Source of the DNA: an uncultured Fuscovulum sp.
GTDB lineage: Bacteria; Pseudomonadota; Alphaproteobacteria; Rhodobacterales; Rhodobacteraceae
DNA: 64,000 bases
Reading direction: 5' to 3'
Assembly: GCA_964386345.1 (NCBI GenBank)
Contig: CAYLSD010000019.1
Coordinates: 9,802-73,801, forward strand
In this document: in pieces, positions 4,157 through 52,663 of the stretch
Numbering within the stretch: the first letter of the stretch is position 1
Layout: every line of letters begins with the position of its first letter
Position numbers and translations under genes: made by a program
Notes under the pieces: model-generated
The model's database searches: none
What the model was told of the DNA's origin: nothing
Seen by the model: only the letters and a program-made list of their open reading frames with translations

Positions 4157-4158
4157 CC

Positions 4159-25636: not shown

Positions 25637-26173
25637 CTACAACCTGCGCACCGCCCCCGGCGCCAGCCCCTCAAGCGTCCAGTCGCCCACGCGCCAGCGG
25701 ATCAGCCGCAGGCAGGGCAGGCCGATGGCGGCGCACATCCGGCGCACCTGCCGGTTGCGGCCCTCGCGCAGGGTCAGTTCGATCCAGCCGTCGGGCACCG
25801 TCTTGCGCTCGCGCACCGGCGGGGTGCGGGGCCAGAGCCATACGGGCGTATCCACCATACGGGCGCCCGCTGGCAGGGTCGGGCCGTCCTTCAGCTCCAC
25901 CCCGCGGCGCAGGGCGGCAAGGGCGGTTTCCGTTATCGCCCCCTCGACCTGCGCCAGATAGACCTTCTCCAGCTTGTGCCGCGGATCGCTGATGCGGGCC
26001 TGCAACCGCCCGTCGTCGGTCAGCACCACCAGCCCCTCGGAATCCCGGTCGAGCCGCCCGGCGGGATAGACGCCCTTGTCGCGGACGAAATCCGCCAGCG
26101 TGGGCCGCCCCTCGGCGTCGGTGAACTGGCAGAGGACGTCATAGGGTTTGTTCAGGAGGATCAGCCGGGCCAT
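25637..26173 (-). CDS. rluE: rRNA large-subunit pseudouridine synthase E (RsuA family)
   Basis: [38 protein letters not shown]. Confidence 0.9.
25829..25862. repeat. Repeat family A doublet inside rluE
   Basis: GGGCCAGA-G-CCATACGG followed at +17 by GCGTATCC-A-CCATACGG. Confidence 0.6.
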
Positions 26174-26343
26174 GGGGCAGGGGTAGCGCATCGCGGCGCG
26201 GCTGGCCAGAACGGGTGTCGGATGCGCCCGGAGGCAGTTGGCTGGCAGAGGACAGCAAGCAACCGAACGGGACGCAGCCGAAGGAGATGGATACATGTGC
26301 GCAGCCGCTTGTCAGCACCCCGCGCCGCTGGCAGGGTCGCGCC

Positions 26344-27399
26344 ATGCAGATCGTCGTCATCGGCGCCGGGGTGATCGGCGCATCCATCGCCTTCCAGCTT
26401 GCCCGCCGCGGCCATGGCGTCACCATCCTCGACGGGCAGGGCATCGCCGCCGGGGCCTCGGGGCGCAGCTTCGGATGGATCAACGCCTCCTACTTCCTGA
26501 CCGAGGCGCATTACCGCCTGCGGCTGGAGGGCATCGCCGCTCACCGCCGCCTGTGCGGGATCCTGCCCGATTGCCCCACGAGCTGGCCCGGCTGCCTGTG
26601 GTTCGAGGAGACCGGCGCCGCGCAGGCCGCCTTCGCCGCGGACCTGCGCGCGCTTGGCTATCCGGTCGAAACATGGGACGGCGGCCGCATCAGGCGTGAT
26701 CTGCCGCAGCTTGGCGCCGCGCCCGAAAGCGCGCTGTTCCTGCCCGGCGAGGGCGCGGTCGATCCCGCGCTTCTCGCCGCCCGGCTGATCGCCGCCTCCG
26801 GCGCGCGGCTCTGGCGAGGCGTGGCGGCGGAAGGGCTCGTGCAGGCACAGGGCAGGGTGAGTGGCGTCCAGACCGCGCAAGGGGGGATTGCCGCCGATGC
26901 CGTGGTGGTGGCCGCCGGGACCGGCGCGCCCGCGCTGGTGGAGCCGCTGGGGATGACGCTGCCGATGCTGCCGCGCCCGGGGCTGATCCTGAAGACGCCG
27001 CCGCTGCCGCCGGTTCTGCCGCTGGTCCTCTGGGGGCCGGGGGGCGAGTTGCGGCAGGACGAGGCCGGGCGGCTGGTGATGCCGACGGCGGCCAACCATC
27101 AGGGCGATGCGGCGGAGACCGTCGCGGGCCTTGCCGGTGCCCATGCCGATGCCGCCATGGCGCGGCTGCGGGCGCTGCTGCCCGGGGTGCGGGCAGAGTG
27201 GGACGAGGTGGCGCTGGCCCATCGCCCGGTGCCGGGCGACGGCCTGCCGGTGATCGGGCAGGCGCGCCCCGGCCTCTGGCTGGCGGTGATGCATTCCGGT
27301 GCGACGCTGGCGGCGATCACCGGAGAACTGGTGGCGCAGGAGATGGAAGGGGCGGAGAGCGGGCTGCTCGCCGATTTCCGGCCCGGCCGGTTCGGCTGA
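26344..27399 (+). CDS. FAD-dependent oxidoreductase, DAO/DadA family
   Basis: IVVIGAGVIG, ASGRSFGWIN, RPVPGDGLPVIG, MHSGATLA. Confidence 0.9.
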   Translation: MQIVVIGAGVIGASIAFQLARRGHGVTILDGQGIAAGASGRSFGWINASYFLTEAHYRLRLEGIAAHRRLCGILPDCPTSWPGCLWFEETGAAQAAFAADLRALGYPVETWDGGRIRRDLPQLGAAPESALFLPGEGAVDPALLAARLIAASGARLWRGVAAEGLVQAQGRVSGVQTAQGGIAADAVVVAAGTGAPALVEPLGMTLPMLPRPGLILKTPPLPPVLPLVLWGPGGELRQDEAGRLVMPTAANHQGDAAETVAGLAGAHADAAMARLRALLPGVRAEWDEVALAHRPVPGDGLPVIGQARPGLWLAVMHSGATLAAITGELVAQEMEGAESGLLADFRPGRFG

Positions 27400-27482
27400 A
27401 CGGCGCTCGGCGGCAGAGAAGAAGACGGCCGCCTGCCACCCTGGCTTGCGCCCTCAGAATGCTCGGGGTATCTGTCGCTCAT

Positions 27483-27505
27483 GATATGTAATGATATAAC
27501 ATATC
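27483..27505. promoter_or_regulatory. Zur box upstream of zinT
   Basis: GATATGTAATGATATAACATATC, 23-bp near-palindrome resembling Zur consensus GAAATGTTATAwTATAACATTTC. Confidence 0.8.
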
Positions 27506-27541
27506 GAATCAATGCGGCGATACCTTGAAAGGAACTCCACC

Positions 27542-28204
27542 ATGCGACTGACGACACAAGGATGGACCGGCGCCCTGGCATTGGCTTCGGTGCTTGCCCT
27601 GGCCCTGCCGGCGGCGGCCCAGCAGGCGGCCGATGAGGGCCATGACCATGACCACTCCCATGCGGCGGACGACCAGGTCTACAATGGCTATTTCGACGAT
27701 GCCCAGATCGCGGCCCGCCCGCTTTCCGACTGGGAGGGCGACTGGCAGTCGGTCTATCCGCTTCTGCTCGACGGCACGCTGGACCCGGTGATGCAGCACA
27801 AGGCCGGGCATGGCGGCAAGAGCGCCGAGGAATATCGCGCCTATTACGACACCGGCTATCGCACCGATGTCGACCGGATCGAAATCCATGGCGACAGCGT
27901 CAGCTTCCATCGCGCGGCCGGTGTGGTGTCGGCGCACTATGCCGATGACGGGCATGAGGTGCTGACCTATGAAAAGGGCAATCGCGGCGTGCGCTACATC
28001 TTCCGCAAGGTCGAGGGCGACGCGGCGGCGCCCGGTTTCATCCAGTTCAGCGACCACGCCATCGCGCCGGTGAAGGCGGGGCATTATCACCTCTATTGGG
28101 GCGATGATCGCGCGGCGCTGCTGCAGGAGGTGACCAACTGGCCGACCTATTATCCCGCGGCGCTGACCCCGGCCGAAATCCTGTCGGAAATGCAGGCGCA
28201 TTGA
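27542..28204 (+). CDS. zinT: Periplasmic zinc-binding protein ZinT
   Basis: Signal peptide, His patch EGHDHDHSH, LSDWEGDWQSVY, YEKGNRGVRY, FSDH, HYHLYWG, NWPTYYP. Confidence 0.92.
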   Translation: MRLTTQGWTGALALASVLALALPAAAQQAADEGHDHDHSHAADDQVYNGYFDDAQIAARPLSDWEGDWQSVYPLLLDGTLDPVMQHKAGHGGKSAEEYRAYYDTGYRTDVDRIEIHGDSVSFHRAAGVVSAHYADDGHEVLTYEKGNRGVRYIFRKVEGDAAAPGFIQFSDHAIAPVKAGHYHLYWGDDRAALLQEVTNWPTYYPAALTPAEILSEMQAH

Positions 28205-28220
28205 TCTGCACCAGCCGAAA

Positions 28221-28244
28221 CGGGCGCCCTTCCGGGGGCGCCCG
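28221..28244. terminator. Probable bidirectional terminator (zinT/eno)
   Basis: CGGGCGCCC-TTCCGG-GGGCGCCCG, flanked by GAAA and TTTT. Confidence 0.65.
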
Positions 28245-28256
28245 CAGCGGTTTTCC

Positions 28257-30507
<2,251 letters not shown>

Positions 30508-30568
30508 GGCAGCCTCCAGCAGCCGGGATCGGGCAAGGCCCTACACCGGCCACCGGGGAAAGGGAACC

Positions 30569-31414
30569 TCAGCGGTAGATCTTCGGCGCGCCCGCCCGGT
30601 CGTGCAGCGCGTTCACCTCATGCGGTTGCAGTTCCAGCCCCTGCGCCAGCGCGTGCAGGTATTGCGCCTCTTCCTGCCGGTCGAGGTCTATCGCCGACAG
30701 CGAGGCCAGGTAGACCTGCGCCTCCATCCCGTTCGGCACCATCCGCACCAGCGCATCGACATCCACCGGGGCCGACAGTTCGGCATTCACCGCCTGCACC
30801 TCGGCCTGGGTGGCGTCGCCCATGGCCTCCATCAGCTTCTTCTTCTCGGCGGCATCCAGTTCCCCGTCGCATTTCACCGCCTGAATGATCGCCTTCAGCA
30901 TCAGCGCGGCGGAAATCTCGTCCTCCTCCTCGATCCGCAAGGAGCCGCCCGCAGGCCGCGCCGCGGAAGCGCCGAGGACGGAGCCGAGAAGATCGCCGAT
31001 CCCGCCCGCGTTCTGGCCGCCCCGGCCCGAGCGCGCGCCGGTCATCTGTTCCAGCACTGATTCCAGCCCGCCCTTTGGCGCGGTCTTGCGGCTGGTGGTG
31101 CGCTTCTGGCCCAGCACCTCTTCCAGCAGGTCGCCGCCGCGGCCGCTGCGGCTGGAGCGGGTGGCATTGCTGCCGGAATTGCCCAGCAGGTCGCCCATCA
31201 GATCGCCAAGCCCGCCGGATTGCCCCGCGGACCGGCCCGCCGGGCGCGTGCTTCCGGCCGAGCTGCCGCCGCCCAGCATCCCGCCGAGCACGTCGCCCAG
31301 ACCGCCGCCCGAGCCGGAAGCACCGCTTCCGCCCGCGCTCTTTGCGAGGGTCGAGACGCCCTTGGCCACCGCCACCCCGATCGCCACCTTCATCAATGTC
31401 TTTCCGAGACTCAT
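30569..31414 (-). CDS. DUF533 / TerB-like protein with Gly/Ser-rich N-terminus
   Basis: LMLKAIIQAVKCDGELD..E, QVYLASLSAIDLD...E..YL..LA. Confidence 0.8.
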   Translation of the reverse strand: MSLGKTLMKVAIGVAVAKGVSTLAKSAGGSGASGSGGGLGDVLGGMLGGGSSAGSTRPAGRSAGQSGGLGDLMGDLLGNSGSNATRSSRSGRGGDLLEEVLGQKRTTSRKTAPKGGLESVLEQMTGARSGRGGQNAGGIGDLLGSVLGASAARPAGGSLRIEEEDEISAALMLKAIIQAVKCDGELDAAEKKKLMEAMGDATQAEVQAVNAELSAPVDVDALVRMVPNGMEAQVYLASLSAIDLDRQEEAQYLHALAQGLELQPHEVNALHDRAGAPKIYR

Positions 31415-31528
31415 CGCAAGGGCCCTCCAGCCGGACAACAGGGACTAGAGCCTTGCTTGCGCTTCCGCCGCGGTCAATGCAAAACACCGTCCGGGGCAGG
31501 GGGAATTCCCGGGGGATCGCGTCACATC

Positions 31529-32413
31529 ATGCGCAAGGACAGCCTCGATGCCGCCGGGGTGGCAATGCTGCTGGGGGTGCAGCTTCTGCTGGCGCTGAAC
31601 CAGATCAGCATCAAGGTTGTGAATGCCGGGCTTCAGCCGGTGTTCTTCGCGGGCCTGCGTTCGGCGCTGGCGATCCTGTTCGTCTGGGGCTGGCTGGTCT
31701 TCCGAGGCCGCCCGCCGCGGCTGAACCGCGCCGCGCTGCTGCCGGGCCTTGCCATGGGCGCGGTCTTCGCGGCCGAGTTCCTGTTCCTTTTCGTCGCGCT
31801 GGACCTGACCACGGTCGGCCGCGCCTCGGTGCTGATGTATTCGATGCCGCTCTGGTTCGCGCTGATGGCGCATTTCGGGCTGGGGGACCGCATCACGCCC
31901 TTGAAGGCATTCGGGCTGGTGCTGGCCTTCGCGGGCACCGCCTGGGCGATTCTCGGCGGCGCGAAAGGGGGCGAGGGCAGCATCCTGGGCGATCTCTGCG
32001 CGCTTGGGGCGGCGGTCGGCTGGGCGGGGACGGCCTTCATCGCCCGCCGCCCGATGATGCGGGCCGAGGGGCCGGAGATGCAGCTTTTCTGGATGGTCCT
32101 CGTCTCCGCGCCGATCCTGCTGGCGATCGCGCCGATCTTCGGCCCGCTGGTCCGCGACCTGCAGCCGCTGCACCTGTGGCTGCTGCTGTTCCAGGCCACC
32201 ATCGTCGTGGCCGGGGGCTTCATCGCCTGGCTGTGGCTGATGTCGGTCTATCCCTCCTCGACCGTCGCCGCCTTCTCCTTCCTGACGCCGGTGCTGGCCA
32301 TCCTTCTGGGGGCAGCGATCTTCGGCGAGACCCTCTCGCCGGCGATTCTCGGCCCCGGGGTTCTGGTGGCGGCGGGCATCGTGCTGATCAACCGCTCGGC
32401 CGCGCGGCGCTGA
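31529..32413 (+). CDS. DMT/EamA family transporter
   Basis: MRKDSLD, GLQPVFFAGLRS, LDLTTVGRAS, AFSFLTPV. Confidence 0.88.
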   Translation: MRKDSLDAAGVAMLLGVQLLLALNQISIKVVNAGLQPVFFAGLRSALAILFVWGWLVFRGRPPRLNRAALLPGLAMGAVFAAEFLFLFVALDLTTVGRASVLMYSMPLWFALMAHFGLGDRITPLKAFGLVLAFAGTAWAILGGAKGGEGSILGDLCALGAAVGWAGTAFIARRPMMRAEGPEMQLFWMVLVSAPILLAIAPIFGPLVRDLQPLHLWLLLFQATIVVAGGFIAWLWLMSVYPSSTVAAFSFLTPVLAILLGAAIFGETLSPAILGPGVLVAAGIVLINRSAARR

Positions 32414-32539
32414 GGGCGCGAGAATCGGCTGATCGGCGGCGCAGGATTTGTCCCCCGCATCATCCGTTGCCTGAACCTGCGGCCCCAACCGCGCCGCTTT
32501 CTTGGCAAAAGGGCCGGAGTTCAGAAAACACTCCAACCC

Positions 32540-32548
32540 TTGTCCACA
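32540..32548 (+). promoter_or_regulatory. DnaA-box-like 9-mer upstream of nrdJ
   Basis: TTGTCCACA in the 465-bp nrdJ upstream region. Confidence 0.3.
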
Positions 32549-32705
32549 GGACCCTCCACAACCGGAAGGCGGAAAAGGTTACAAATCCGTGAACTGGGCG
32601 TGACGTGATGACGAAAGCGTCAAGACGGAAAATCCGCCGAAGAGGCAAAAAAAACCGTTGAACCGTCTTGGTGAATACGACAGGTTGACCGGGTGTTTCG
32701 GGCAG

Positions 32706-32721
32706 ACACTAAATCTAGTGT
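32706..32721. promoter_or_regulatory. NrdR box
   Basis: ACACTAAATCTAGTGT matches acaCwAtATaTwGtgt, about 160 bp upstream of nrdJ; weaker candidate CAAGAGATGG at 32744. Confidence 0.8.
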
Positions 32722-32878
32722 CGTCGGGCAGAGGCAGGACCCTCAAGAGATGGCAGCCGGCATCACGGCGCCGAACCCCTGTCGGCAGGCAGCCGGCGGG
32801 GCCGGGTTCCTGTGTTCCGTTCCGTCCGGCCGCATGCAGGACCATGCCGGGCTTCCGGCCAATGAAGGATCAGGGGCA

Positions 32879-35800: not shown

Positions 35801-36577
35801 GGCTATACCCAGAAGGCGATCATCGGCGGGCACAAGGTCTACCTCCGCACCGGTGAATATGCCGACGGCTCGCTGGGCGAGATCTTCATCGACATGCACA
35901 AGGAAGGCGCGGGCTTCCGGGCGATGATGAACAACTTCGCCATCGCGGTCTCGGTCGGCCTGCAATACGGCGTGCCGCTGGAGGAATTCGTCGAGGCCTT
36001 CACCTTCACCCGCTTCGAACCGGCAGGCATGGTGCAGGGCAACGACAGCATCAAGAACGCCACCTCGATCCTCGACTACATCTTCCGGGAACTGGCGATT
36101 TCCTACCTCGACCGCACGGATCTTGCGCATGTCGCGCCGAAGGGCACCACCTTCGACGACCTCGGGCGCGGCGACGACGAGGGCAAGCGGAACATCTCGG
36201 AAGTCTCCGAATCCGCCGCCTCGAAATCGGTGGAACTGCTGAAGTCGATCTCCTCCTCCGGCTATCTGCGCAAGCGGCTGCCGCAGGAACTGGTGGTGTT
36301 GCAGGGCGGGGCAGGGGCGACGGCCCTGGCCACCGGCACCGACCCGGTCGCCACGCTGAACATCCTGGTGCCCGAGACCCGCGCCATGGGCCTTTCCGAG
36401 GGCGCTTCGGCCTTCGCCATGGGTGCGGCCTCGTCCTCCAGCGACGTGGCGCGGACCAAGGCCAAGATGCAGGGCTACACCGGCGACCCCTGCGGCGAAT
36501 GCGGCAACTACACGCTCGTGCGCAACGGCACCTGCCTGAAGTGCAACACCTGCGGCGGGACCACGGGCTGCAGCTGA
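32879..36577 (+). CDS. nrdJ: Vitamin B12-dependent (class II) ribonucleotide reductase with C-terminal TSCPD-type domain
   Basis: [46 protein letters not shown], CxxC...CxxC terminus; no intein-sized insertion seen. Confidence 0.96.
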
Positions 36578-36597
36578 CCGACTGTTCCGGTCAGCGC

Positions 36598-36635
36598 GGG
36601 GCGGTGGGGGGAAACCTCCGCCGCCCCTTCGTTTT
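36598..36635 (+). terminator. nrdJ intrinsic terminator
   Basis: GGGGCGGTGGGGG-GAAA-CCTCCGCCGCCCC followed by TTCGTTTT. Confidence 0.7.
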
Positions 36636-36770
36636 GGGGCGCCCCGGATTTCATCCCGGCCCGCCGCAAGCCGCCCGGAATCCCCCATCTTCCGGCCCGT
36701 CGCCGCCGGGCCTATAGTCCGACGGAAAGTCCGGCCCCGGACGTATCAGGGGAAAGCCAGAGGACCGCCC

Positions 36771-39918: not shown

Positions 39919-39974
39919 CCGCGGCTTCTCATCTGCGGGGTTGTTCCTGCGAATGGATCGGGTAGATTCCCGGG

Positions 39975-42489: not shown

Positions 42490-43250
42490 TCGACAAGCCT
42501 CAGGTCGGCGGATTGGGTGGAAAGATGGGCGGGCCGGCGGGCGGGGATATCGGCCACCAGCAGCGCCGGGCTTTCGCCCGCCTGCGCCAGCACCTCGCCA
42601 TGCGGCCCGGCGATCAGGCTGCCGCCGAGATAGGTCAGATCGCCCTCGGTCCCGCAGTAATTGGCATAGGCGATGGCGACCCCGTGGTTCGCCGCCATGG
42701 CGGGCACCGTGGCGCGGACGACATGGGCATAGGGCTGCATGTTGGCGGTAGGGACAAGGATCGCCGTGGCGCCTTTGTCCGCCAGGGCCTTGACATGCGG
42801 GGCGAATTCCACGTCGTAGCAGATCAGCAGCGCCGCCGTCTCCCCGGCCAGCGGGAAGGTAACATAGGCCTCGCCCGGCCGGTAGATCGCCTTTTCCCGG
42901 GGCCCGTAAAGCTGGATCTTGCGGTAATGCGCCAGCCGCGCGCCATCGGGGCCAAGGCAGAGGGCGGAGTTGTAGACCGCATCGCCATCCCGTTCGGCAT
43001 AGCCGGCAATCAGCGCGCAACGGGCGGCGGCGGCGGCGCGGGACAGACGGTCGAAGGCGGGCGCGTCCTGCGGCAGGGCATTCGCCGCCGAGACCGGCTG
43101 GTTGTAGCCGGGCAGCCAGACCTCGGGCAGGACCAGCGCATCGGCCCCCACCGAACCCGCCGCCACAAGCGCGGCCTCGGCCTCCGCCAGCGCCCGGTCC
43201 AGATCGGAAGCCGGGGAGTTCCCCTGCCAGAGCGCCAGCCGCATCGCCAT
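42486..43250 (-). CDS. Carbon-nitrogen hydrolase (nitrilase superfamily amidase)
   Basis: Triad context LPE, YRKIQL, LLICYDVEF; stop overlaps next ATG. Confidence 0.9.
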   Translation of the reverse strand: MAMRLALWQGNSPASDLDRALAEAEAALVAAGSVGADALVLPEVWLPGYNQPVSAANALPQDAPAFDRLSRAAAAARCALIAGYAERDGDAVYNSALCLGPDGARLAHYRKIQLYGPREKAIYRPGEAYVTFPLAGETAALLICYDVEFAPHVKALADKGATAILVPTANMQPYAHVVRATVPAMAANHGVAIAYANYCGTEGDLTYLGGSLIAGPHGEVLAQAGESPALLVADIPARRPAHLSTQSADLRLVE

Positions 43251-43257
43251 CCTCCAC

Positions 43258-43320
43258 GGGGATACCCCCGATTACCTGCCCGGACGCTATATCCAACGGC
43301 ATCGGGGGGTATATACCCCC
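43258..43320. promoter_or_regulatory. G/C-tract palindromes upstream of the C-N hydrolase operon, candidate operators
   Basis: GGGGATACCCC (43258-43268) and perfect GGGGGTATATACCCCC (43305-43320). Confidence 0.45.
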
Positions 43321-43334
43321 GGAGAGGTATCGCC

Positions 43335-45386: not shown

Positions 45387-45448
45387 GGCAAGCGGCCTTT
45401 TCACGGGTGGCTGGCGGCATCGTCGGGCAGGGCGCGGATTTCGTCAAA

Positions 45449-45478
45449 CACAAAATCGACACTGGTGTCGATTTTGTG
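45449..45478. promoter_or_regulatory. Candidate TetR operator in divergent stcD/tetR promoter
   Basis: CACAAAATCGACAC-TG-GTGTCGATTTTGTG, perfect 14-bp arms. Confidence 0.75.
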
Positions 45479-45523
45479 GGCTGTCTGGTTGCGGCGGGCG
45501 GGCAGGGGGCTTACCCTTGCCGC

Positions 45524-46162
45524 ATGGAAAGCACGGCGGAAGAGGCGGAGACGAAGGATCGCGGCTGGCGCGGCTCGGCCGCGCTGTGGCTGGACGGGGC
45601 CCATGCGCTGTTGATCGAAGGCGGCGTGGAGGCGGTGAAGATCGGCCCGCTGGCCGCCCGGCTCGGCCTGTCGCGGACCTCGTTCTACTGGCATTTCGCC
45701 GACCGCGAGGCGCTTCTGGCCGCGCTGGTCGCCCGCTGGCGCGAGACGAACACGCCCGCGCTGGTGGCACGGATCGACCGGCCCGCGGCGACGGTGACCG
45801 AGGCGGTTCTGGCGCTTTTCGACGCCTGGGTGGATGCGGACATGTTCGATTCGGCGGCGGAATTCGCCATGCGGACCTGGGCGCTGACCGATCCCGTGGT
45901 GGCCGCCGCGCTGGCCGGAGAGGATGAGGCGCGGATCGCCGCGCTGACCGGCCTTTTCCTGCGCCACGGCTATGCGGCGGATGAGGCGGACACCCGGGCG
46001 CGTACGGTCTATCTGACCCAGGTCGGCTATATCGCGCTGCGGTCGGAAGAGGATTTCGCGGCGCGGATGGCGCGGATCCCCTCCTATGCGCTGGTCTTCA
46101 CCGGGGTTGCCCCTTCGGCGGCGGAGGTGGCGGCCTTCCGGGCGCGCCACGCCCTTACGTAA
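45524..46162 (+). CDS. TetR/AcrR family regulator
   Basis: GGVEAVKI..LA.RLGLSRTSFYWHF helix-turn-helix. Confidence 0.9.
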   Translation: MESTAEEAETKDRGWRGSAALWLDGAHALLIEGGVEAVKIGPLAARLGLSRTSFYWHFADREALLAALVARWRETNTPALVARIDRPAATVTEAVLALFDAWVDADMFDSAAEFAMRTWALTDPVVAAALAGEDEARIAALTGLFLRHGYAADEADTRARTVYLTQVGYIALRSEEDFAARMARIPSYALVFTGVAPSAAEVAAFRARHALT

Positions 46163-46571
46163 GACGCGCCAGCAGCCGGGCCAGAAGCGCGGCCTCCGCC
46201 TCGTCCAGCGGTTCCAGCGTCAGGGCGCTGATCTCCAGCGCCAGCGGCGCCAGCCGGGCGAACAGCGCCCGGCCTTCGGGTGTCAGCGCCACGATCCGCC
46301 GGCGGCGGTCGGCCGGGTCCGGCGTGGCGGCGACAAGCCCCTGCCGCACCAGCCGGTCGACCACGCCCTTGACCGTGACCGCATCCATCGCGGTTTCCCG
46401 GCCGAGCGCGTTCTGCGACTGCGGCCCCAGTTCGGCCAGCCGGGCCAGCAGGGCGAATTGCGTGGTGGTCACGTCCGGGATGCCGCGGGCAAAGATCGCC
46501 AGATGCCGCTGCGTCACCCGGCGCAGCAGAAAGCCGATCTGCTCGTCCAGCACATAGCCCGTATGGTCCAT
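46155..46571 (-). CDS. MarR family regulator (NicR-like), divergent from the hydroxylase operon
   Basis: EQIGFLLRR..QRH, SQNALGRETAMD..TVKGVVDRL, DPADRRR...LTPEG. Confidence 0.9.
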   Translation of the reverse strand: MDHTGYVLDEQIGFLLRRVTQRHLAIFARGIPDVTTTQFALLARLAELGPQSQNALGRETAMDAVTVKGVVDRLVRQGLVAATPDPADRRRRIVALTPEGRALFARLAPLALEISALTLEPLDEAEAALLARLLARLT

Positions 46572-46592
46572 GCGCCCGAATAGACCCTACGC
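46559..46592. repeat. Repeat family A doublet overlapping the marR start codon
   Basis: CCGTATGG-T-CCATGCGC + CCGAATAG-A-CCCTACGC; 29/34 identical to 23822-23855. Confidence 0.7.
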
Positions 46593-46647
46593 TTTCCGTC
46601 CGCGCAAGGGACGGCTGTTGACAGCCGGGGCCGAGGCTTGGCACCTT

Positions 46648-46661
46648 GTTCGTATACGAAC
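46648..46661. promoter_or_regulatory. Candidate MarR operator
   Basis: Perfect palindrome GTTCGTATACGAAC 15 bp before the hydroxylase ATG; second palindrome GGCTGT-TG-ACAGCC (46613-46626) contains TTGACA. Confidence 0.6.
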
Positions 46662-46676
46662 GACAGGGCTAAGCGG

Positions 46677-47495
46677 ATGGATTACCTTCGCCCCGACAGC
46701 CTTTCCCAGGCGCTGGCCGCAGTTGCGGGCGGGGCGCGGGTGCTGGCGGGCGGGACGGATCTCTACCCCGGGGCGGGGCCGCGGCTGAAAGGGCCGGTGG
46801 TGGATCTTGCCGCCCTGCCGGGGATGGCGGGGATAAAGGCGGGGCCGGATGGCCTGCGGATCGGCGCCTGCACCACCTGGACCGCGATTGCCGAGGCAGA
46901 CCTGCCCCCCGCCGCGCGGGCGCTGCAACAGGCGGCGCTTCAGGTCGGCGGGCGGCAGGTGCAGAACGCGGGCACCATCGCCGGGAATATCTGCAACGCC
47001 TCGCCCGCCGCCGACGGCGTGCCGCCGCTTCTGGCCATAGGGGCCGGGGTGGAACTGGCCTCTGCCGCCGGGACGCGGCGGCTGGCGCTGGAGGATTTCC
47101 TGCAAGGCCCGCGCCGGGTGGAGCTACGGCCCGGCGAACTGGTCTCGGCGGTGCTGCTGCCGCGGGCGGGGCTGGCCGGGCGCTCGGCCTTCGCGAAACT
47201 GGGCGCGCGGGCGCATCTGGTGATCTCCATCGCCTCGGCCGCCGTGCGGCTGGAGGTCTCGGGCAGGCGGATCGAGGCGGCTGCGGTGGCGGTCGGCGCC
47301 TGCTCTCCGGTCCCGCGGCGGCTGCCTGCGGTGGAGGCGGCGCTTTGCGGCCCGATGCAGGGGGCCGCAGCCCGGGTCGATCCGGCGGCGGTGGCGGCGG
47401 CCCTGTCGCCCATCGGCGATGTGCGGGCGACGGCGGATTACCGGCTGCGGGCAGCGGCGGAACTGGTCCGCCGGGCGGTGGAGGACGCGCTGTGA
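46677..47495 (+). CDS. Molybdenum hydroxylase FAD subunit (XdhA/CoxM/NdhF-like)
   Basis: LAGGTDL, QVQNAGTIAGNICNASPAAD, DVRATADYR. Confidence 0.92.
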   Translation: MDYLRPDSLSQALAAVAGGARVLAGGTDLYPGAGPRLKGPVVDLAALPGMAGIKAGPDGLRIGACTTWTAIAEADLPPAARALQQAALQVGGRQVQNAGTIAGNICNASPAADGVPPLLAIGAGVELASAAGTRRLALEDFLQGPRRVELRPGELVSAVLLPRAGLAGRSAFAKLGARAHLVISIASAAVRLEVSGRRIEAAAVAVGACSPVPRRLPAVEAALCGPMQGAAARVDPAAVAAALSPIGDVRATADYRLRAAAELVRRAVEDAL

Positions 47496-50179
47496 TCCGG
47501 TTCCGGCTGAACGGCGAGGAGGTCGCGGCGGAGGCCCCGCCCACCGAACGGTTGAGCCTTACCCTTCGGGAAAGGCTGGGGAAAACCGGCACCAAGGTCG
47601 GCTGCGACGCGGGCGATTGCGGCGCCTGCACGGTGCTGGTGGACGGCTGGGCCACCTGCGCCTGCCTGACCCCGGCGGCGCGGGTCGAGGGCCGCGAGGT
47701 CACCACGGTTGAGGCGGAAACCCCCATCCTTGGCCGCCTGCGCGCCGCCTTCCTGGCCGAGGGCGCGGCGCAATGCGGCATCTGCACGCCGGGGATGCTG
47801 ATGGCGGCGGCCGAGCTTCTGGCGCATACACCCCGGCCGGACGAGGCCATGGTGCGGCAGGCCCTTGGGGGCGTCCTCTGCCGCTGCACCGGCTATGCGC
47901 GGATCGTCGCGGCGGTGGTCTCGGCGGGCCGGCCTGCGGCGGCGCATCCCGCCGCACCCGCCGCAGGGCAGGCGGTCGGCGCGGCCATGCCGCGGCTGGA
48001 CGGGGCGGCGAAGGTGGCGGGCGATCTGTTCGGCGACGATGTGGTGCCCCCCGGCGCGCTGGTGGTACGGGCCGTCCGCTCGCCGCATCCCCATGCCGCC
48101 TTCCGCTTCGGCGACCTGGCCGCCTATGCCGCCCGCCCGGGCGTGGCCGGGGTCTTCACCGCCGGGGACATTCCCGGCCGCAACGCCTTTTCCGTCATCC
48201 CGCCCTTCGCCGACCAGCCCGCCATCGCCACCTCTCCGGCCCGGTTCCGCGGCGAATGCGTGGCGCTGGTGGCGTTCGAGCCCGAGGCGGATTCCGGCCT
48301 GGCCGATTTCCCGGTGGACTGGCAGCCCTTGCCCGCGCTGGACAGCCCGGAGGCGGCCGAGGCCCCCGGCGCGGCGCTTGTCCACCCGGGCCGCCCCGGC
48401 AACCTGCTGATCGAGGGCAGGGTGAGGCGCGGCGACGTGGCGGCGGCGCTGGCCGCCTCGGCCCATGTGGTGGAGGGCAGCTTCACCACCGCCTTCGTCG
48501 AGCACGCCTATATCGAACCCGAGGCAGGCGCCGCATGGCTTGAGGGCGACAGGCTGGTCATCCGCGCCTGCACCCAGGCCCCCGGCATGGACCGCGAGGA
48601 AACCGCCGCGATCCTCGGCCTGCCGCTGGACAGGCTGCGCATCATCCCCTCTGCCGTCGGCGGCGGTTTCGGCTCGAAGCTGGATGTCTCCTTGCAGCCG
48701 CTGATCGGGCTGGTCGCCCTGCGCACAGGCCGCCCGGCGCGGATGACTTATTCGCGCCCCGAAAGCATGGCCTCCACCACCAAGCGCCACCCGGCCGGGA
48801 TGCAGGGCCGGATCGGTTGCGACGCCCGGGGCCGGATCACCGGCATGGAGTTCGAGGGCAGCTTCGACACCGGCGCCTATTCCAGCTGGGGCCCGACGGT
48901 GGCGAACCGGGTGCCGGTGCATGTCTCCGGCCCCTATCTGACGCCCGCGATCCATGCCCGGGCGCGGGCGGTGCACACCAACGGCCCGGTCTCCGGCGCC
49001 TTCCGCGGCTTCGGCGTGCCGCAGGCGGCGCTGTGGCAGGAAACGCTTTACGACCGGCTGGCGGAGAAGGCCGGGATCGACCGGCTGGAGTTCCGTATCC
49101 TGAACGCGCTGCGCGACGGGGATGTCTCGCCCACCGGCAACAGCCTGCAGGCGGTGGGGATCGCGCCGTGCCTTGAAGCGCTGCGGCCCGCATGGATGCG
49201 CGCGCTGGACTGGGCGGCTTCGGCCAGGGGCCGCGGCATCGGCGTCGCCTCCTGCTGGTATGGCTGCGGCAATACCGCCTTGCCCAACCCTTCCACCATC
49301 CGCATCGGCATCACCCGCGGGGGAGAGGCCGTATTGCATCAGGGCGCGACCGATATCGGGCAGGGATCGAACACCGTCATCCCGCAGATCGCCGCCGATG
49401 CCCTTGGCGTGCCGGTCCATGCCCTGCGGCTGGTCGGCCCCGACACGGCGCTGACGCCGGATGCGGGCAAGACCTCGGCCTCCCGCCAGACCTATGTCAC
49501 CGGCCGGGCGGCGCAGAAGGCGGCGGGCAGTTTGCGGGCGGCGATCCTGCGTATGGCCAATGCGGGCGAAGGGTCCATACTGGCACTGTCCCCGGGCCGG
49601 ATCACCGTGACCGAAGGGACCATACGGCGCGAGATCGAGCTTGAGGCGATGCCCCCCGACAGCCGCGGCTATGCGCTGTCGGCCGAGGAAAGCTACGACC
49701 CGCCGACCCGGCCGCTGGATGCCGACGGGCAGGGCGTGCCCTATGCCGTCTATGGCTACGGCGCGCAGATGGTGGAACTGGAGGTGGACCCGGCCCTCGG
49801 CACCGTCCGCCTGCACCGGATCACCGCGGCGCATGACCTCGGCCGGGTGATCAACCCGCTGCTCGCCCGCGGCCAGATCGAGGGCGGCATCGCCCAGGGA
49901 CTCGGCATGGCGCTGATGGAGGAATACCTGCCTGGCCGCACCGACAACCTGCACGACTACCTGATCCCGACCACCGGCGACATGCCGGCCATCGACCCGA
50001 TCCTGATCGAGGTGCCGGACCCCGAAGGCCCTTTCGGCGCCAAGGGCCTCGGCGAACACGTCCTGATCCCCACCGCCCCGGCGATCCTGAACGCCATCCG
50101 CCACGCTACCGGAGCCGCGATCACCCGCACCCCCGCGCTGCCCCACCGCATCCTCGCGGCGATGGAGGGCAGGGAATGA
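47492..50179 (+). CDS. Molybdenum hydroxylase, fused 2x[2Fe-2S] + molybdopterin subunit (nicotinate/xanthine dehydrogenase family)
   Basis: KVGCDAGDCGAC, QCGICTPG, LCRCTGY, VGGGFGSK, GAFRGFG, AKGLGE; GTGA overlap. Confidence 0.93.
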   Translation: MIRFRLNGEEVAAEAPPTERLSLTLRERLGKTGTKVGCDAGDCGACTVLVDGWATCACLTPAARVEGREVTTVEAETPILGRLRAAFLAEGAAQCGICTPGMLMAAAELLAHTPRPDEAMVRQALGGVLCRCTGYARIVAAVVSAGRPAAAHPAAPAAGQAVGAAMPRLDGAAKVAGDLFGDDVVPPGALVVRAVRSPHPHAAFRFGDLAAYAARPGVAGVFTAGDIPGRNAFSVIPPFADQPAIATSPARFRGECVALVAFEPEADSGLADFPVDWQPLPALDSPEAAEAPGAALVHPGRPGNLLIEGRVRRGDVAAALAASAHVVEGSFTTAFVEHAYIEPEAGAAWLEGDRLVIRACTQAPGMDREETAAILGLPLDRLRIIPSAVGGGFGSKLDVSLQPLIGLVALRTGRPARMTYSRPESMASTTKRHPAGMQGRIGCDARGRITGMEFEGSFDTGAYSSWGPTVANRVPVHVSGPYLTPAIHARARAVHTNGPVSGAFRGFGVPQAALWQETLYDRLAEKAGIDRLEFRILNALRDGDVSPTGNSLQAVGIAPCLEALRPAWMRALDWAASARGRGIGVASCWYGCGNTALPNPSTIRIGITRGGEAVLHQGATDIGQGSNTVIPQIAADALGVPVHALRLVGPDTALTPDAGKTSASRQTYVTGRAAQKAAGSLRAAILRMANAGEGSILALSPGRITVTEGTIRREIELEAMPPDSRGYALSAEESYDPPTRPLDADGQGVPYAVYGYGAQMVELEVDPALGTVRLHRITAAHDLGRVINPLLARGQIEGGIAQGLGMALMEEYLPGRTDNLHDYLIPTTGDMPAIDPILIEVPDPEGPFGAKGLGEHVLIPTAPAILNAIRHATGAAITRTPALPHRILAAMEGRE
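49549..49627. repeat. Repeat family A units inside the Mo subunit gene
   Basis: Units at 49549 and 49566 (17-bp register) and 49611 (CCGAAGGG-A-CCATACGG). Confidence 0.6.
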
Positions 50180-50190
50180 AAGGTTCTTTT

Positions 50191-50240
50191 CCCCTTCATC
50201 TTGGTCCAAATACTCCGGGGGCGCGGGGGCTGGCCCCCGC
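50191..50240 (+). repeat. Intergenic repeat family B, copy 2
   Basis: CCCCTTCATCTTGGTCCAAATACTCCGGGGGCGCGGGGGCTGGCCCCCGC. Confidence 0.8.
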
Positions 50241-50267
50241 TCCGACCTTGGCCGCAGGACTTGCCCC

Positions 50268-51704
50268 ATGACCGAAGCCCCCGAGAAGATCCGCTGCGAT
50301 GCCTGCCCGGTGATGTGCTACATCGCCCCCGGCCAGACCGGCGCCTGCGACCGTTATGCCAATGAGGCAGGCCGGATCGTGCGGACCGATCCGGTGGTGA
50401 TGCTGTCCCATGCCGTCGGGACCGGCGGGCGCGTGGTGCCCTTCGCGGCGCGGGATTGGGATGGCAGCCCGGTGCCCGCGGATGCTTTCGTCACCGGCAT
50501 CGGCGCGGGAACCACCTACCCGGACTACAAGCCCGCGCCCTTCATCGTGTCGTCCCGTATGGGCGATACGGACATGGTGACCGTGGTGACCGAGGCGATC
50601 TTTTCCTATTGCGGGGTGAAGGTGAAGATCGACACCGACCGCTTCCTCGGCCCCGAGGGGGCGGTGGTCCGGGTGACGGGCGAGGCCGTCGGCCATGTCA
50701 CCACCGCCGAATACGGCAGCCAGATGCTGTCCCTCGGCGGCGTCCATCACCTGACCGGCGGCTCGAAGGCCGGGGGCCGCGTCACCTGCGCCGCGCTGCT
50801 GAGCCTGTGCAACGGCGAGGCGGTGGAGATGGAGATCGAGGGCGGCTCGGCCGTGACCGTGCAGGCCGGACGGCCTCCGGTTGTGGATGGCGTGCAGGAG
50901 CGGCGGATGCGGGTCGGCTGCGGCTCGGCCACCATCGGCATGTTCGCGGTGCAATGGCAGGGGCTGGTGGACGAGGTGGTGGTGGTGGACGACCACATCA
51001 CCGGCGTCGTTTCGGAACATCAGGCCGGGAAGGTGCTGGACTGGCAGCCGACCGGGATCAGGATCAAGGGGCATCGGTCGACCCCGGGGCGGTATTTCCG
51101 GGTGTCGGAGCCCGGACAGGGCTGGGGCGGCACGCGGCTGACCGATCCGCTGGAGATCCTGGGCGACTGGCAGGAGAAGAAGGGGGCAAGGCCGGGGCTG
51201 CGGCTGCTGATGGTGTCCACCACCGGCGAGGAATACGCCTATTACGTGCTGGACCGGGACCTGCGCCCGGTGCCGCAGGAGTTGCCGCAGAACCTGAAGA
51301 AGACCGTGCAACTGATTGACGAGAATTGCGAACCCTCGCTTTGCACCGTGCTGTTCATGGGCGGGGCCGGGGGATCGCTGCGGGCGGGCGTCACCCGGAA
51401 TCCGGTGCGGTTGACAAGGTCCGTGCAGGGCGGCGTGACCCGGCTGACCTGCGGCGGGGCGGAAACCTTCGTCTGGCCCGGCGGCGGCATCACCTTCATG
51501 GTCGACGTGACCCGGCTGCCGAAGGGCGCCTTCGGTTATGTGCCGACGCCCGCGCTGGTGGCTCCGCTGGAATTCACCCTGCCGCGCGAGGATTATCTGG
51601 CGATGGGCGGGCATGAGGCGGCGGTCCGGGACATCGGGCAGGTGATGGAGGAAGGCGGGGAATACCCGACTGCCGCGAGGATCGAACCGTGGGGCGGGCG
51701 GTGA
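50268..51704 (+). CDS. hnr: 6-hydroxynicotinate reductase-like Fe-S flavoprotein
   Basis: RCDACPVMC...GACDRY, GAGTTYPDYKPAPFIVS, FSYCGVKVKIDTDR, MRVGCGSATIG, GGAGGSLRAGVT, WPGGGITFMVD; downstream of Mo-hydroxylase. Confidence 0.8.
   Translation: MTEAPEKIRCDACPVMCYIAPGQTGACDRYANEAGRIVRTDPVVMLSHAVGTGGRVVPFAARDWDGSPVPADAFVTGIGAGTTYPDYKPAPFIVSSRMGDTDMVTVVTEAIFSYCGVKVKIDTDRFLGPEGAVVRVTGEAVGHVTTAEYGSQMLSLGGVHHLTGGSKAGGRVTCAALLSLCNGEAVEMEIEGGSAVTVQAGRPPVVDGVQERRMRVGCGSATIGMFAVQWQGLVDEVVVVDDHITGVVSEHQAGKVLDWQPTGIRIKGHRSTPGRYFRVSEPGQGWGGTRLTDPLEILGDWQEKKGARPGLRLLMVSTTGEEYAYYVLDRDLRPVPQELPQNLKKTVQLIDENCEPSLCTVLFMGGAGGSLRAGVTRNPVRLTRSVQGGVTRLTCGGAETFVWPGGGITFMVDVTRLPKGAFGYVPTPALVAPLEFTLPREDYLAMGGHEAAVRDIGQVMEEGGEYPTAARIEPWGGR
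50555..50571. repeat. Repeat family A single unit inside hnr
   Basis: CCGTATGG-G-CGATACGG, 15/16 match to consensus. Confidence 0.6.
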
Positions 51705-51793
51705 GCGGCGCGTTCCATATCGCGCAGCCGCGCATCCGCGCGCGGCTGCAAGGGCCCGTCTCGCCTCTGGCCGTTCCGGCCAACCGGCTCGGG

Positions 51794-51830
51794 GCCTCCG
51801 GCGGGGATATTGGCGGTTCTGGAAGAGGGG
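51794..51830 (-). repeat. Intergenic repeat family B, degenerate copy 3
   Basis: GCCTCCGGCGGGGATATTGGCGGTTCTGGAAGAGGGG resembles the reverse complement of copy 1; preceded by a 10-bp-stem hairpin at 51724-51749. Confidence 0.45.
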
Positions 51831-51832
51831 CG

Positions 51833-52663
51833 GTGGCGGCGCTTTTGCCGGACGGGCGGCTGCATCTGCAACACGGGCCGATCGACATAGTCGCGGAAGC
51901 CTGGGGAGAGGCCGTGGCCGTCCGCGAAGGATATGCCCGGGCGGCGGGGCGCTTCGCTTCCGTGCTTCAGGAACTGGCGGCGGAACTGCCTGCGTTGCGG
52001 GCTGAGGATGCGCCCTTGCGGGGAGCCATCGCGCAACGGATGGCCGCTGCCGTGGCCCCGTTCCGGCCCGCCTTCATCACGCCCATGGCCGCCGTGGCGG
52101 GTGCGGTGGCGGAGGAGGTGCTGGCGGCGCTGGTCGGGCCGGGGATCGCCCGCGCCTGTGTCAACAACGGCGGCGACATCGCGCTGTTCCTTGCGCCGGG
52201 GCAGCGGCTGTCCTGCGCGCTGGCGGCCTCGGGCGGTATGGACCATACCACCGTATGGGCCGAGGCGCCGGTGCGCGGCATCGCCACCTCGGGCTGGCGG
52301 GGGCGCAGTTTCTCTTTCGGTGTCGCCGATGCGGTCACGGTGCTGGCGCGGACCGCGGCGATGGCGGATGCGGCGGCGACGATGGTGGCGAATGCGGTGG
52401 ATCTGCCCGGCCACCCGGGCATCCGCCGGCGCCCGGCCTGCGAGATGCAGGCGGATACCGATCTGGGCGCGCGGCTGGTGACGGTGGCGGTTCCCGCTCT
52501 TTCGCCGGAAGACCGCGGCGCAGCGCTGGCGGCGGGGCTGGCGGCGGCCGAGGGCTTCCGGGCGCGCGGATTGATTGAAGCTGCCGCGATTTACCTGCAA
52601 GGTGAGCGGCGGGTGACCGGGGGCCTTGCCCTTTCCGCGCCGGCAAGGGGAGAAGATGACTGA
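51833..52663 (+). CDS. UPF0280 family protein (ApbE-like fold)
   Basis: LPDGRLHLQHGPID, FITPMAAVAGAVA, NNGGDIA, GIATSGWRGRSFS.GVADAVTV; start GTG 51833 (RBS) or 51701. Confidence 0.85.
   Translation: MAALLPDGRLHLQHGPIDIVAEAWGEAVAVREGYARAAGRFASVLQELAAELPALRAEDAPLRGAIAQRMAAAVAPFRPAFITPMAAVAGAVAEEVLAALVGPGIARACVNNGGDIALFLAPGQRLSCALAASGGMDHTTVWAEAPVRGIATSGWRGRSFSFGVADAVTVLARTAAMADAAATMVANAVDLPGHPGIRRRPACEMQADTDLGARLVTVAVPALSPEDRGAALAAGLAAAEGFRARGLIEAAAIYLQGERRVTGGLALSAPARGEDD
52234..52267. repeat. Repeat family A doublet inside the UPF0280 gene
   Basis: CGGTATGG-A-CCATACCA then at +17 CCGTATGG-G-CCGAGGCG. Confidence 0.6.

Follow-up and report, generated by a model that had tools for sequence, protein, structure and literature searches.

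An inverted-repeat DNA word around dif in Fuscovulum and its relatives: a candidate terminus-marking protein-binding site

A DNA motif built from the 7-bp half-site CCATACG (CGTATGG on the other strand), paired as inverted repeats, is restricted to the surroundings of dif in several species, including an uncultured Fuscovulum of the Paracoccaceae. No terminus-marking site is known in this group of bacteria, and the motif is a candidate for a protein-binding site of that kind. We know of no terminus-marking sequence outside the enterobacteria and vibrios (matS/MatP). The position of the sites and the way in which they are spelled within genes suggest that they are recognized by a putative DNA-binding protein that would act as a dimer and mark the terminus, with a function like that of matS/MatP and an unrelated sequence, a reading to which we give about an even chance. 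Such a protein would organize or anchor the terminus, as in the matS/MatP system.

Distribution of the motif around dif

The motif was initially described as a 17-mer palindrome, CCGTATGG-N-CCATACGG, in the window, the whole 64,000-nt stretch of DNA that was analyzed, in which genes were called with a codon log-odds caller. Its half-sites are paired with two types of spacing. The first, CGTATGG-N1-3-CCATACG, corresponds to the 17-mer and is also found in 17-bp tandem arrays; the second, CCATACG-N4-CGTATGG, is commoner nearby, and a position matrix over 79 sites yielded CCATACG-SSSS-CGTATGG. CGTATGG was present 15 times in the window, compared to 4.1 ± 1.9 times in dinucleotide shuffles (none of 100 reached 15), and the 17-mer with up to three mismatches was present 10 times (0.35 expected). 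A literature search for the motif string returned primer matches only.

The preliminary description had likened the motif to DNA uptake sequences (DUS), and genome-wide counts did not bear this out. There were 186 half-sites in 4.44 Mb, and the 38 matches to the 17-mer with three or fewer mismatches were no commoner than those to 30 permuted palindromes (range, 2 to 208). A genome-wide repeat or DUS was dismissed on these counts and controls.

The location of the sites was more informative. A dif-like site (TCGCATAA-N6-TTATGTAATAT) is present in a single copy in the Fuscovulum genome (C66:13410) and is kept at the syntenic position in relatives. In one relative with a complete 3.43-Mb chromosome (G018), dif lies at 1.380 Mb and parS at 3.055 to 3.065 Mb, 49/51% opposite. 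GC skew was too weak to support the terminus position. Synteny with relatives puts the window ∼25 to 55 kb from the conserved dif, and the motif-rich contigs C19, C69, C66, and C47 adjoin around it, in an order that is inferred from relatives, two of which (G001 and G003) disagree on one side of dif. The contig richest in the motif, C61, is outside this synteny-ordered set.

An unbiased scan of the 85 kb proximal to dif ranked CCATACG first among 3360 7-mers (22 copies versus 2.75 expected; 8-fold; P, 3e-13), and every one of the top 8-mers overlapped CCATACGGGGG. The genome has 12 exact ATACG-N4-CGTAT palindromes, and 11 of them are on contigs C47, C61, and C66. Similar clustering was found in relatives. 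On a 236-kb contig of G001, 19 of 25 half-sites were within 45 kb of dif, and on a 254-kb contig of G003, seven of nine were in the 40 kb nearest to dif. Within 50 kb of dif there were 19 half-sites in G001, 11 in G006, 10 in G016, 9 in G017, and 4 in G018, with a background of ∼3 to 4. Enrichment centered on dif, within ∼45 to 50 kb of it, was present in Fuscovulum, G001, G003, G006, G016, and G017 and absent in the more distant G018; G009 was also without enrichment, and G002 and G012 are likewise motif-poor. Motif density was highest in the Fuscovulum lineage. The domain is ∼100 kb, with ∼30 sites, or one per 3 to 4 kb, and has no strand polarity toward dif, single half-sites being found in both orientations on each arm.

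Sites within genes and their origin

About half of the sites are within open reading frames (ORFs), where they use every frame and either strand. The sites in the window, and the genes in or near which they lie, are as follows.

1-8055: GTA-like cluster
21198..21204, minus: single half-site in tyrS (CCATACG-CCAG-GTAT), weak, possibly due to chance, and without conservation in G003
22758-23651, minus: rarD
23797..23877, no strand: intergenic array between the desaturase gene and rarD, with half-sites at 23797, 23806, 23823, and 23871 and tandem 17-bp units at 23805-23821, 23822-23838, and 23839-23855
23884-24798, minus: fatty-acid desaturase gene
25171..25216, no strand: hairpin-forming intergenic double unit (25177-25193 and 25194-25210)
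25637-26191, minus: rluE
25838..25862, minus: coding doublet in rluE, CGT ATG GTG GAT ACG CCC GTA TGG (RMVDTPVW)
46155-46571, minus: MarR-family gene
46559..46592, no strand: 34-bp double unit over the start codon, first four codons (MDHTG), and 5' leader of the MarR-family gene
47492-50179, plus: Mo/Fe-S subunit gene
49549..49582, plus: coding double unit in the Mo/Fe-S subunit gene (site A), LRMANAGEGSIL, with CGT ATG and ATA forming the outer half-sites
49611..49627, plus: coding unit in the Mo/Fe-S subunit gene, GAA GGG ACC ATA CGG (CGC), encoding EGTIR(R)
50268-51704: gene for a 478-amino-acid (Hnr-like) protein
50555..50571, plus: coding unit in the 478-amino-acid protein gene, CCGTATGGGCGATACGG, one mismatch from a perfect palindrome
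51833-52663: UPF0280 gene
52234..52267, plus: coding double unit in the UPF0280 gene, GGT ATG GAC CAT ACC ACC GTA TGG GCC

The four genes for which coding copies had been reported (rluE, the Mo subunit gene, the 478-amino-acid protein gene, and the UPF0280 gene) all bear the motif with the peptides and codons originally given. Three of the gene names were sound; the fourth, hnr, is provisional, as no family model matched the protein. The intergenic double unit at 25171..25216, which includes the only perfect 17-mer of the genome (25177-25193), sits in an 838-bp noncoding gap between rluE and the desaturase gene, and its DNA is predicted to fold into a perfect hairpin with an 18-bp stem (−26.3 kcal/mol; z = −10.2). 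G001 and G003 also have arrays upstream of rarD, at a position matching that of the 23797..23877 array.

Within genes the half-site occupies every reading frame (CGT ATG G; C GTA TGG; CC ATA CG; CAT ACG), and this use of three of three frames indicates a word of DNA rather than a peptide motif. The codons ATA (1.5% of Ile), GTA (1.1% of Val), and CGT (4.9% of Arg) are rare genome-wide, as had been claimed from the window, and GGT makes up 5.4% of Gly codons; GAT, which had been listed with them, accounts for 28% of Asp codons and is not rare. The same rare-codon spelling was found in the neighboring genes mfd and an acyl-CoA synthetase gene. Five of 30 ATA codons (∼17%) in terminus genes were inside a half-site, compared to 4 of 890 (0.45%) elsewhere. 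Genes proximal to dif contained 25 half-sites versus 9.3 expected from synonymous-codon shuffles (2.7-fold), whereas in 1 Mb of genes elsewhere their number was 0.38 of that expected from the shuffles. This shortfall was considered as a sign that the word is avoided away from the terminus, a reading rejected as unspecific because the ratios for other GTAT words span 0.23 to 1.19.

Alignments with orthologues revealed no indels at any coding site, including those in rluE, the Mo subunit, the Hnr-like protein, UPF0280, the MarR-family gene, Mfd, and the acyl-CoA synthetase. The bases that make the motif are derived, lineage-specific substitutions, either synonymous or amino-acid-changing, and several of them altered otherwise conserved residues. 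Local replacement of this kind is what the preliminary description had expected; its alternative, clean insertion of a mobile microelement, was ruled out because no indels were found.

Individual sites illustrate the pattern. With its preceding codon, the rluE string reads GCC CGT ATG GTG GAT ACG CCC GTA TGG (ARMVDTPVW), with both units in 17-bp register, and the doublet nucleotides are identical in G001, Xinfangfangia pollutisoli, and Rhodobacter sp. Har01; ∼70 Tabrizicola-type orthologues have R-A-V-A/D/E-E-P-x-W at this site with equal length. Site A of the Mo/Fe-S subunit gene (CTG CGT ATG GCC AAT GCG GGC GAA GGG TCC ATA CTG) is identical at 29 of 32 positions to the reverse complement of the array at 23824-23855, and G003 has CGC CTG ... 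TCC GTC there. The unit at 49611..49627 is found besides Fuscovulum in G003 only, with GGC GCS ACS CGG in other species. In the 478-amino-acid protein gene (TCC CGT ATG GGC GAT ACG GAC at the motif), the changes specific to the lineage put CGT in place of CGC and ACG (Thr) in place of GCC (Ala), the latter affecting the Ala of GADMVT, which is present in 11 of 12 orthologues. The UPF0280 double unit is mostly common to G001, and distant orthologues have GGG CTG GAC CGG GTG. The double unit at the MarR-family gene is common to G003 only, other species having a different sequence of the same length. Mfd provides an example of a site built from synonymous changes to rare codons alone: LPYDRVS is spelled with CCA TAC GAC CGC GTA TCG here and with CCC TAT GAC CGC GTC TCG in five relatives. 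The derived bases, the changes at conserved residues, and the synonymous rare-codon spellings agree with the earlier proposal that a force acting on DNA prevails over codon preference and in some cases over the choice of amino acid.

Close strains had also been expected to conserve synonymous positions more strongly at the sites, and this was not observed. Half-sites were conserved between Fuscovulum and G001 in 11 of 22 cases (0.50, compared to 0.42 for composition-matched 7-mers) and between Fuscovulum and G003 in 10 of 27 cases (0.37 versus 0.52), and no site-level purifying selection was detected in either comparison. Since single half-sites are no better conserved than matched 7-mers, simple purifying selection on each site is unproven. 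A gain-biased mutational process may lie behind the sites.

A putative reader and rival explanations

A putative, probably dimeric, sequence-specific protein would read the motif and mark ∼100 kb centered on dif. Sequences already near the motif would cross the recognition threshold through point substitutions, which would be synonymous where the protein permits and would alter the amino acid at tolerant positions. Single sites would turn over between species while regional density was maintained. As the region is ∼90% coding, dense sites could be attained only by siting them in genes, and the rare codons ATA, GTA, CGT, and CCA would appear because synonymous substitutions spell the motif. The presence of two or three spacer classes (N1-3, N2, and N4) is unusual and counts against a rigid single dimer.

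Searches of the Fuscovulum genome for MatP (PF06303) and RTP (PF02334) gave no matches, with positive controls in E. coli and B. subtilis, respectively. In G017 and G008, the interval from rluE to rarD was searched for a gene that might encode the reader and contained only a cupin-like ORF. A ZapT-like MerR protein (C40:25932-26762; MerR_1, 78 bits) is encoded directly downstream of ihfA (C40:25617-25919; Bac_DNA_binding). Its helix-turn-helix region (HTH; residues 8 to 80) is all but invariant across 15 genomes of the genus, the motif-poor G018 and G009 among them, and did not covary with motif presence. With an identical HTH in relatives without enrichment, a link to ZapT is at most possible. 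The more specific proposal that CCATACG inverted repeats are the cis-element of an alphaproteobacterial terminus-organizing or anchoring system, whether the missing recognition sequence of ZapT or that of a MatP analogue, is a tentative one that we lean somewhat against.

The motif might instead have spread without any function, through molecular drive in which short-patch ectopic gene conversion or templated mutation carries the arrays into similar nearby sequences, the arrays lying near dif by chance. The sharing of nonpalindromic inner bases among the 34-bp double units at 23822, 46559, and 49549 (29/32 identity) is consistent with this, as are the quick gain of sites, conservation no better than that of neutral 7-mers, and the high density in the Fuscovulum lineage; clustering by arrays would be expected if conversion declines with distance. 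However, site A of the Mo/Fe-S subunit gene changed only at its two outer half-sites and retained the inner mismatches to the array, unlike a single conversion tract, and beyond the half-sites most coding sites have nothing in common with the arrays. The word is also enriched near dif in five species that differ in sites and array positions, and the flanking homology is far under the usual minimum for recombination, so that drive is unlikely. Pause or trap sites for replication forks, bound by a putative terminator protein as in Tus-Ter and RTP-Ter, would fit the presence of sites on either side of dif within ∼50 kb and the frequency of double 17-bp units, which would be comparable to the A and B site pairs of Bacillus Ter. 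Known traps are polar, whereas these sites are palindromic without orientation bias relative to dif, ∼30 of them far exceeds the number in known traps, and RTP is absent; a fork trap therefore seems quite unlikely. We know of no fork trap in alphaproteobacteria.

Explanations tied to local gene expression or DNA uptake fare less well. Auxiliary operators inside genes are known, and the sites could be operators of a local transcription factor (the adjacent MarR or TetR protein or another) for the nicotinate-type operon, rarD, and the desaturase gene, the intragenic sites resembling lacO2. The MarR start codon lies within one double unit, and arrays lie upstream of rarD and the desaturase gene. 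But the intergenic region of the MarR operon has a different 18-bp palindrome, TTGTTCGTATACGAAC(AA), at 46646-46661, which is kept in nine of nine species, whereas the motif is present at this locus only in Fuscovulum and G003 among the nine species compared. With another conserved palindrome in the operator position and a lineage-specific motif, a MarR operator was rejected, and sites in unrelated housekeeping genes over ∼100 kb (mfd, sufB, sufS, and tyrS) make local operators in general very unlikely. An RNA-level role, as stabilizing REP-like hairpins, terminators, or targets of small RNAs, gains some support from the 18-bp-stem hairpin at 25171-25216 and from arrays between codirectional genes. 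Six of seven tested sites folded like shuffles or marginally better, and this restriction of an exceptional hairpin to one site in seven indicates that the shared feature is sequence rather than fold. Half of the sites are in ORFs, in any frame and on either strand, Rfam gave no match, and a role in RNA would not explain why the sites are confined to the terminus; this role is highly improbable. Most improbable of all is an uptake or recognition signal like DUS or uptake signal sequences (USS), or a GTA-related tag, kept genome-wide by biased uptake and recombination. Coding sequence does bear the motif against codon bias, as with DUS and USS, and the window holds the GTA-like cluster, but the motif is local and palindromic, with sparse half-sites, 17-mer counts at the level of permuted controls, and depletion relative to shuffles in coding sequence beyond the terminus.

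Comparison with known systems

If the inverted repeats do serve a terminus-organizing or anchoring system, they would rank as the first Ter-specific sequence to be defined in alphaproteobacteria, and ∼30 sites per 100 kb would be a density sufficient to reshape codon and amino-acid choice in housekeeping genes near dif. It would be a clear case of chromosome-architecture signals constraining protein-coding sequence, with ∼17% of regional ATA codons spelling the word versus 0.45% elsewhere. The clade has cultivable members (Rhodobacter sp. SGA-6-6, X. pollutisoli, and Rhodobacter sp. Har01). A defined word near dif is a handle for pull-down of the reader protein (oligonucleotides CCATACGGGGGCGTATGG and CCGTATGGGCCATACGG) and also opens the way to ChIP and Hi-C on the terminus domain and to synonymous recoding for function.

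Several known systems share features with the motif. As in the DUS of Neisseria and the USS of Pasteurellaceae, a DNA word is forced on coding sequence despite codon preference, but those words are nonpalindromic and present genome-wide in thousands of copies, whereas the Fuscovulum motif is rare in the genome and confined to the terminus. REP and REPIN elements are also intergenic inverted-repeat doublets capable of forming hairpins, like that at 25171-25216; however, REPs are extragenic, high-copy, and dispersed, and the Fuscovulum sites are half in ORFs, made by substitution, and limited to a few neighboring contigs. The parS sites of ParB are palindromic, clustered within tens of kilobases, often genic, and mark one locus, but canonical parS (TGTTTCACGTGAAACA) is on contig C7, opposite dif in G018, and the motif is at the terminus. 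Unlike KOPS, the FtsK-orienting sequences, the motif consists of palindromic pairs and not of a strand-polar word pointing to dif. The Ter sites of B. subtilis RTP and E. coli Tus are likewise protein-binding sites flanking the terminus, and a Bacillus Ter comprises two adjacent dimer sites; those sites are polar and few, in contrast to the symmetric and numerous sites here.

An alphaproteobacterial parallel is ZapT of Caulobacter crescentus, which has ∼10 terminus-proximal binding sites, mostly in ORFs, over 0.9 Mb and for which a consensus site was not found (PMC7188993). Sites biased toward the terminus and largely within ORFs are common to both, as is a MerR-type gene beside ihfA, whereas the Fuscovulum motif is defined and occupies ∼100 kb. 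The matS/MatP system, which defines the Ter macrodomain of E. coli and Vibrio cholerae, has these features in common with the motif: a short palindrome over-represented solely around the terminus and centered on dif, with genic and intergenic sites that are nonpolar and presumably read by a dimer. The sequences differ (matS is GTGACRNYGTCAC, versus CCATACG-N4-CGTATGG or CGTATGG-N-CCATACG), and the Fuscovulum genome has no MatP homologue. The motif has tandem arrays and several spacer classes, and its domain is far smaller and denser than that of matS, with ∼30 sites in ∼100 kb compared to 23 in 800 kb.

Half-sites in the window and their genes

The 17-bp palindrome CCGTATGG-N-CCATACGG consists of two copies of a 7-bp half-site, CGTATGG/CCATACG, which was found 15 times in the window compared to 4.1 ± 1.9 times in dinucleotide shuffles. 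With up to 3 mismatches allowed, the 17-mer had 10 matches (0.35 expected), half of which were intergenic or across a gene start and half within genes. Sites were located as follows.

23797-23877, intergenic array 5' of rarD
25171-25216, intergenic, hairpin-forming double unit with the only perfect 17-mer of the genome
25838-25862, coding site in rluE
46559-46592, 34-bp double unit spanning the start codon of a MarR-family gene
49549-49582 (site A) and 49611-49627 (site B), coding sites in the fused Fe-S/Mo subunit gene
50555-50571, coding site in the gene of a 478-aa protein
52234-52267, coding site in the UPF0280 gene

NCBIfam and Pfam were used to check gene identities; the label hnr, previously given to the 478-aa protein, was not backed by a family match. 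In G017, a relative's genome, the Hnr-like, FAD-subunit and Mo-subunit genes contain stop codons or are fragmented (locus L111, G017:C4:124600-132000), and this nicotinate-type cluster seems to be decaying. The rluE-rarD gap of G017 and G008 (loci L043, 3791-4994; L030, 4351-5295) is occupied by a cupin-like (DUF985-type) ORF, whose N terminus is odd, acidic and repetitive and whose C-terminal fragments are duplicated in tandem. Positions 1-8055 of the window, with small co-directional genes followed by the gene of a 1300-aa protein, look like a gene-transfer-agent structural cluster.

A shared fold was rejected as the common feature of the sites, as among seven sites folded an exceptional hairpin was present only at 25171-25216 and a search of Rfam gave no match. 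The hairpin lies in an 838-bp stretch (24799-25636) between rluE and a desaturase gene, in which no convincing ORF, family match or Rfam match was found.

Distribution relative to dif

The preliminary description had likened the motif to DNA uptake sequences, but the motif is not a genome-wide signal. There is a single perfect 17-mer in 4.44 Mb, and the 38 matches with up to 3 mismatches do not exceed the counts seen for 30 permuted palindromes (2 to 208). Ten of the 38 are on C19, the contig of the window (0.6 expected). The contigs that stood out in half-site density were C61, C47, C66, C19 and C55, and C47, C61 and C66 together carry 11 of the genome's 12 exact ATACG-N4-CGTAT palindromes. 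A separate repeat, TCTGGCAnnnGTCTGGCAAACGTATGGCA, with GTCTGGCA-like units and an 11-bp period (∼14 copies, on C2, C3, C7, C8, C10, C12, C18, C31 and C44), supplies 14 of the 56 intergenic CGTATGG matches; it is possible that these are iterons or transposon-end binding sites.

A dif-like site, TCGCATAATCGGTATTATGTAATAT (C66:13410-13434), is kept at a syntenic position across relatives in the genus, and a CCATACG array (C66:10922-10955) is located 2.5 kb from it. In the complete 3.43-Mb chromosome of G018, dif (1.380 Mb) is nearly exactly opposite parS (3.055 to 3.065 Mb), and dif therefore marks the replication terminus; GC skew was uninformative on this point. Synteny with G001, G003, G006, G016 and G017 indicated that C19, C69, C66 and C47 adjoin, which places the sites of the window ∼25 to 55 kb from dif if the order in G001 applies. 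This order was inferred from relatives, with C61 outside it, and G001 and G003 disagree in arrangement on one side of dif.

When the dif-proximal 85 kb, defined by synteny and excluding the rluE arrays and C61, was compared to the rest of the genome, CCATACG/CGTATGG ranked first of 3360 7-mers (22 versus 2.75 expected; P = 3e-13), and every one of the top 8-mers overlapped CCATACGGGGG. Within 45 kb of dif were 19 of the 25 half-sites on a 236-kb contig of G001, and 7 of the 9 on a 254-kb contig of G003 were in the 40 kb closest to dif. Counts within 50 kb of dif were 19 in G001, 11 in G006, 10 in G016, 9 in G017 and 4 in G018, against a background of ∼3 to 4. In a position matrix of 79 sites the commonest geometry was CCATACG-SSSS-CGTATGG, with the CGTATGG-N-CCATACG of the preliminary description second. 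Compared to dif-proximal DNA of G001, G016 and G017, this genome has GCCGGC-containing 7-mers (CGCCGGC, GCCGGCC) at a 3- to 5-fold lower frequency; a restriction-modification target may be avoided here.

Codon usage and origin of the coding sites

All of the peptides and codon strings initially reported at the coding sites were correct, and the codons concerned are indeed uncommon in the genome (ATA, 1.5% of Ile; GTA, 1.1% of Val; CGT, 4.9% of Arg), as is CCA (2% of Pro), which the motif also uses. Each of the three reading frames is used across the half-sites, which are thus a DNA word rather than a peptide motif. In terminus genes 5 of 30 ATA codons and 6 of 94 CGT codons fall within a half-site, compared to 4 of 890 and 11 of 4553 in other genes. 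Terminus coding sequence contains 25 half-sites versus 9.3 expected from synonymous shuffles (ratio, 2.7); across 1 Mb of other genes the ratio is 0.38, a usual value for words that contain GTAT.

Orthologues were aligned for rluE (18 genomes of the same genus plus 80 more loci) and for the MarR-to-UPF0280 cluster (12 genomes). No indel was present at any motif site in these alignments, and the coding double units have the same 17-bp register as the arrays between genes; an inserted element is thus ruled out, and the prediction of local replacements holds. The bases creating the motif are derived substitutions of this lineage, some of them also present in G003 (Rhodobacter sp. SGA-6-6) and G001 (a MAG of an uncultured Rhodobacteraceae member), which are the genomes closest to this one. 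Site A of the Mo subunit reads CGT ATG ... TCC ATA versus CGC CTG ... TCC GTC in G003, and site B reads GGG ACC ATA CGG in both versus GGC GCS ACS CGG in other species. In the 478-aa protein, CGT ATG GGC GAT ACG (CGC ATG GGC GAT GCC in G001) replaces an Ala kept by 11 of 12 orthologues. The nucleotides encoding RMVDTPVW in rluE are identical across four species, and ∼70 Tabrizicola-type orthologues have R-A-V-A/D/E-E-P-x-W at equal length.

The effect on coding sequence is general across the terminus domain. In Mfd, LPYDRVS is encoded by CCA TAC GAC CGC GTA TCG here and in G001 whereas five other species have CCC TAT GAC CGC GTC TCG; the three differences are synonymous, two give rare codons, and together they yield ATACG-N4-CGTAT. 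At AIRGGI of Mfd, six species have GCC ATA CGG GGG GGT ATC or a sequence that differs from it by one base, and G009 has GCG CTG CGC GGC GGC ATT. An acyl-CoA synthetase gene has four half-sites with the same pattern.

A putative binding word and its candidate readers

The best-supported reading of these comparisons is that this terminus-restricted palindromic motif is a putative protein-binding word marking the terminus neighborhood. To our knowledge, no chromosome-domain-specific binding word has previously been defined in this bacterial class. Because the region is ∼90% coding, the required site density would push sites into ORFs via rare codons and occasional amino acid changes. The earlier interpretation is partly supported: codon preference and some amino acid choices are overridden by a force acting on the DNA, but the motif is not like an uptake sequence. 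The raised synonymous conservation expected among close strains was absent at this scale, as half-sites were no better kept than composition-matched 7-mers (11 of 22 in G001 [null, 0.42]; 10 of 27 in G003 [null, 0.52]). Individual sites turn over fast while regional density is kept, and the largest gain of sites is in this lineage. This pattern fits selection on density but might also come from a process biased toward gains, for example conversion of short patches from the arrays; against conversion, Mo site A changed only at its outer two half-sites and retained its inner mismatches to the array.

The local MarR was rejected as the reader of the motif, since the motif is at the MarR start only in this genome and G003, and all nine of the species compared share another palindrome. 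This 18-bp palindrome, TTGTTCGTATACGAAC(AA) (46646-46661), 3' of a TTGACA box in the MarR/FAD-subunit gene interval, probably serves as the actual operator of the nicotinate-type cluster, for a NicR/NicS-like MarR or TetR protein.

The nearest biological precedent is ZapT of Caulobacter, which binds terminus-proximal sites, mainly within ORFs, and for which a consensus was not found (PMC7188993). The ZapT arrangement of an ihfA-like gene and a MerR-family gene, followed by a tRNA gene, is present at C40:25617-26762; a single CGTATGG lies 20 bp past the MerR stop codon. The helix-turn-helix of this ZapT-like MerR is invariant across the genus, even in motif-poor G018 and G009, which makes it a weaker candidate for a lineage-specific reader. 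The working likeness proposed for the motif is to matS/MatP: although its sequence is unrelated to matS and MatP was not found in the genome, the motif would work in a similar way.
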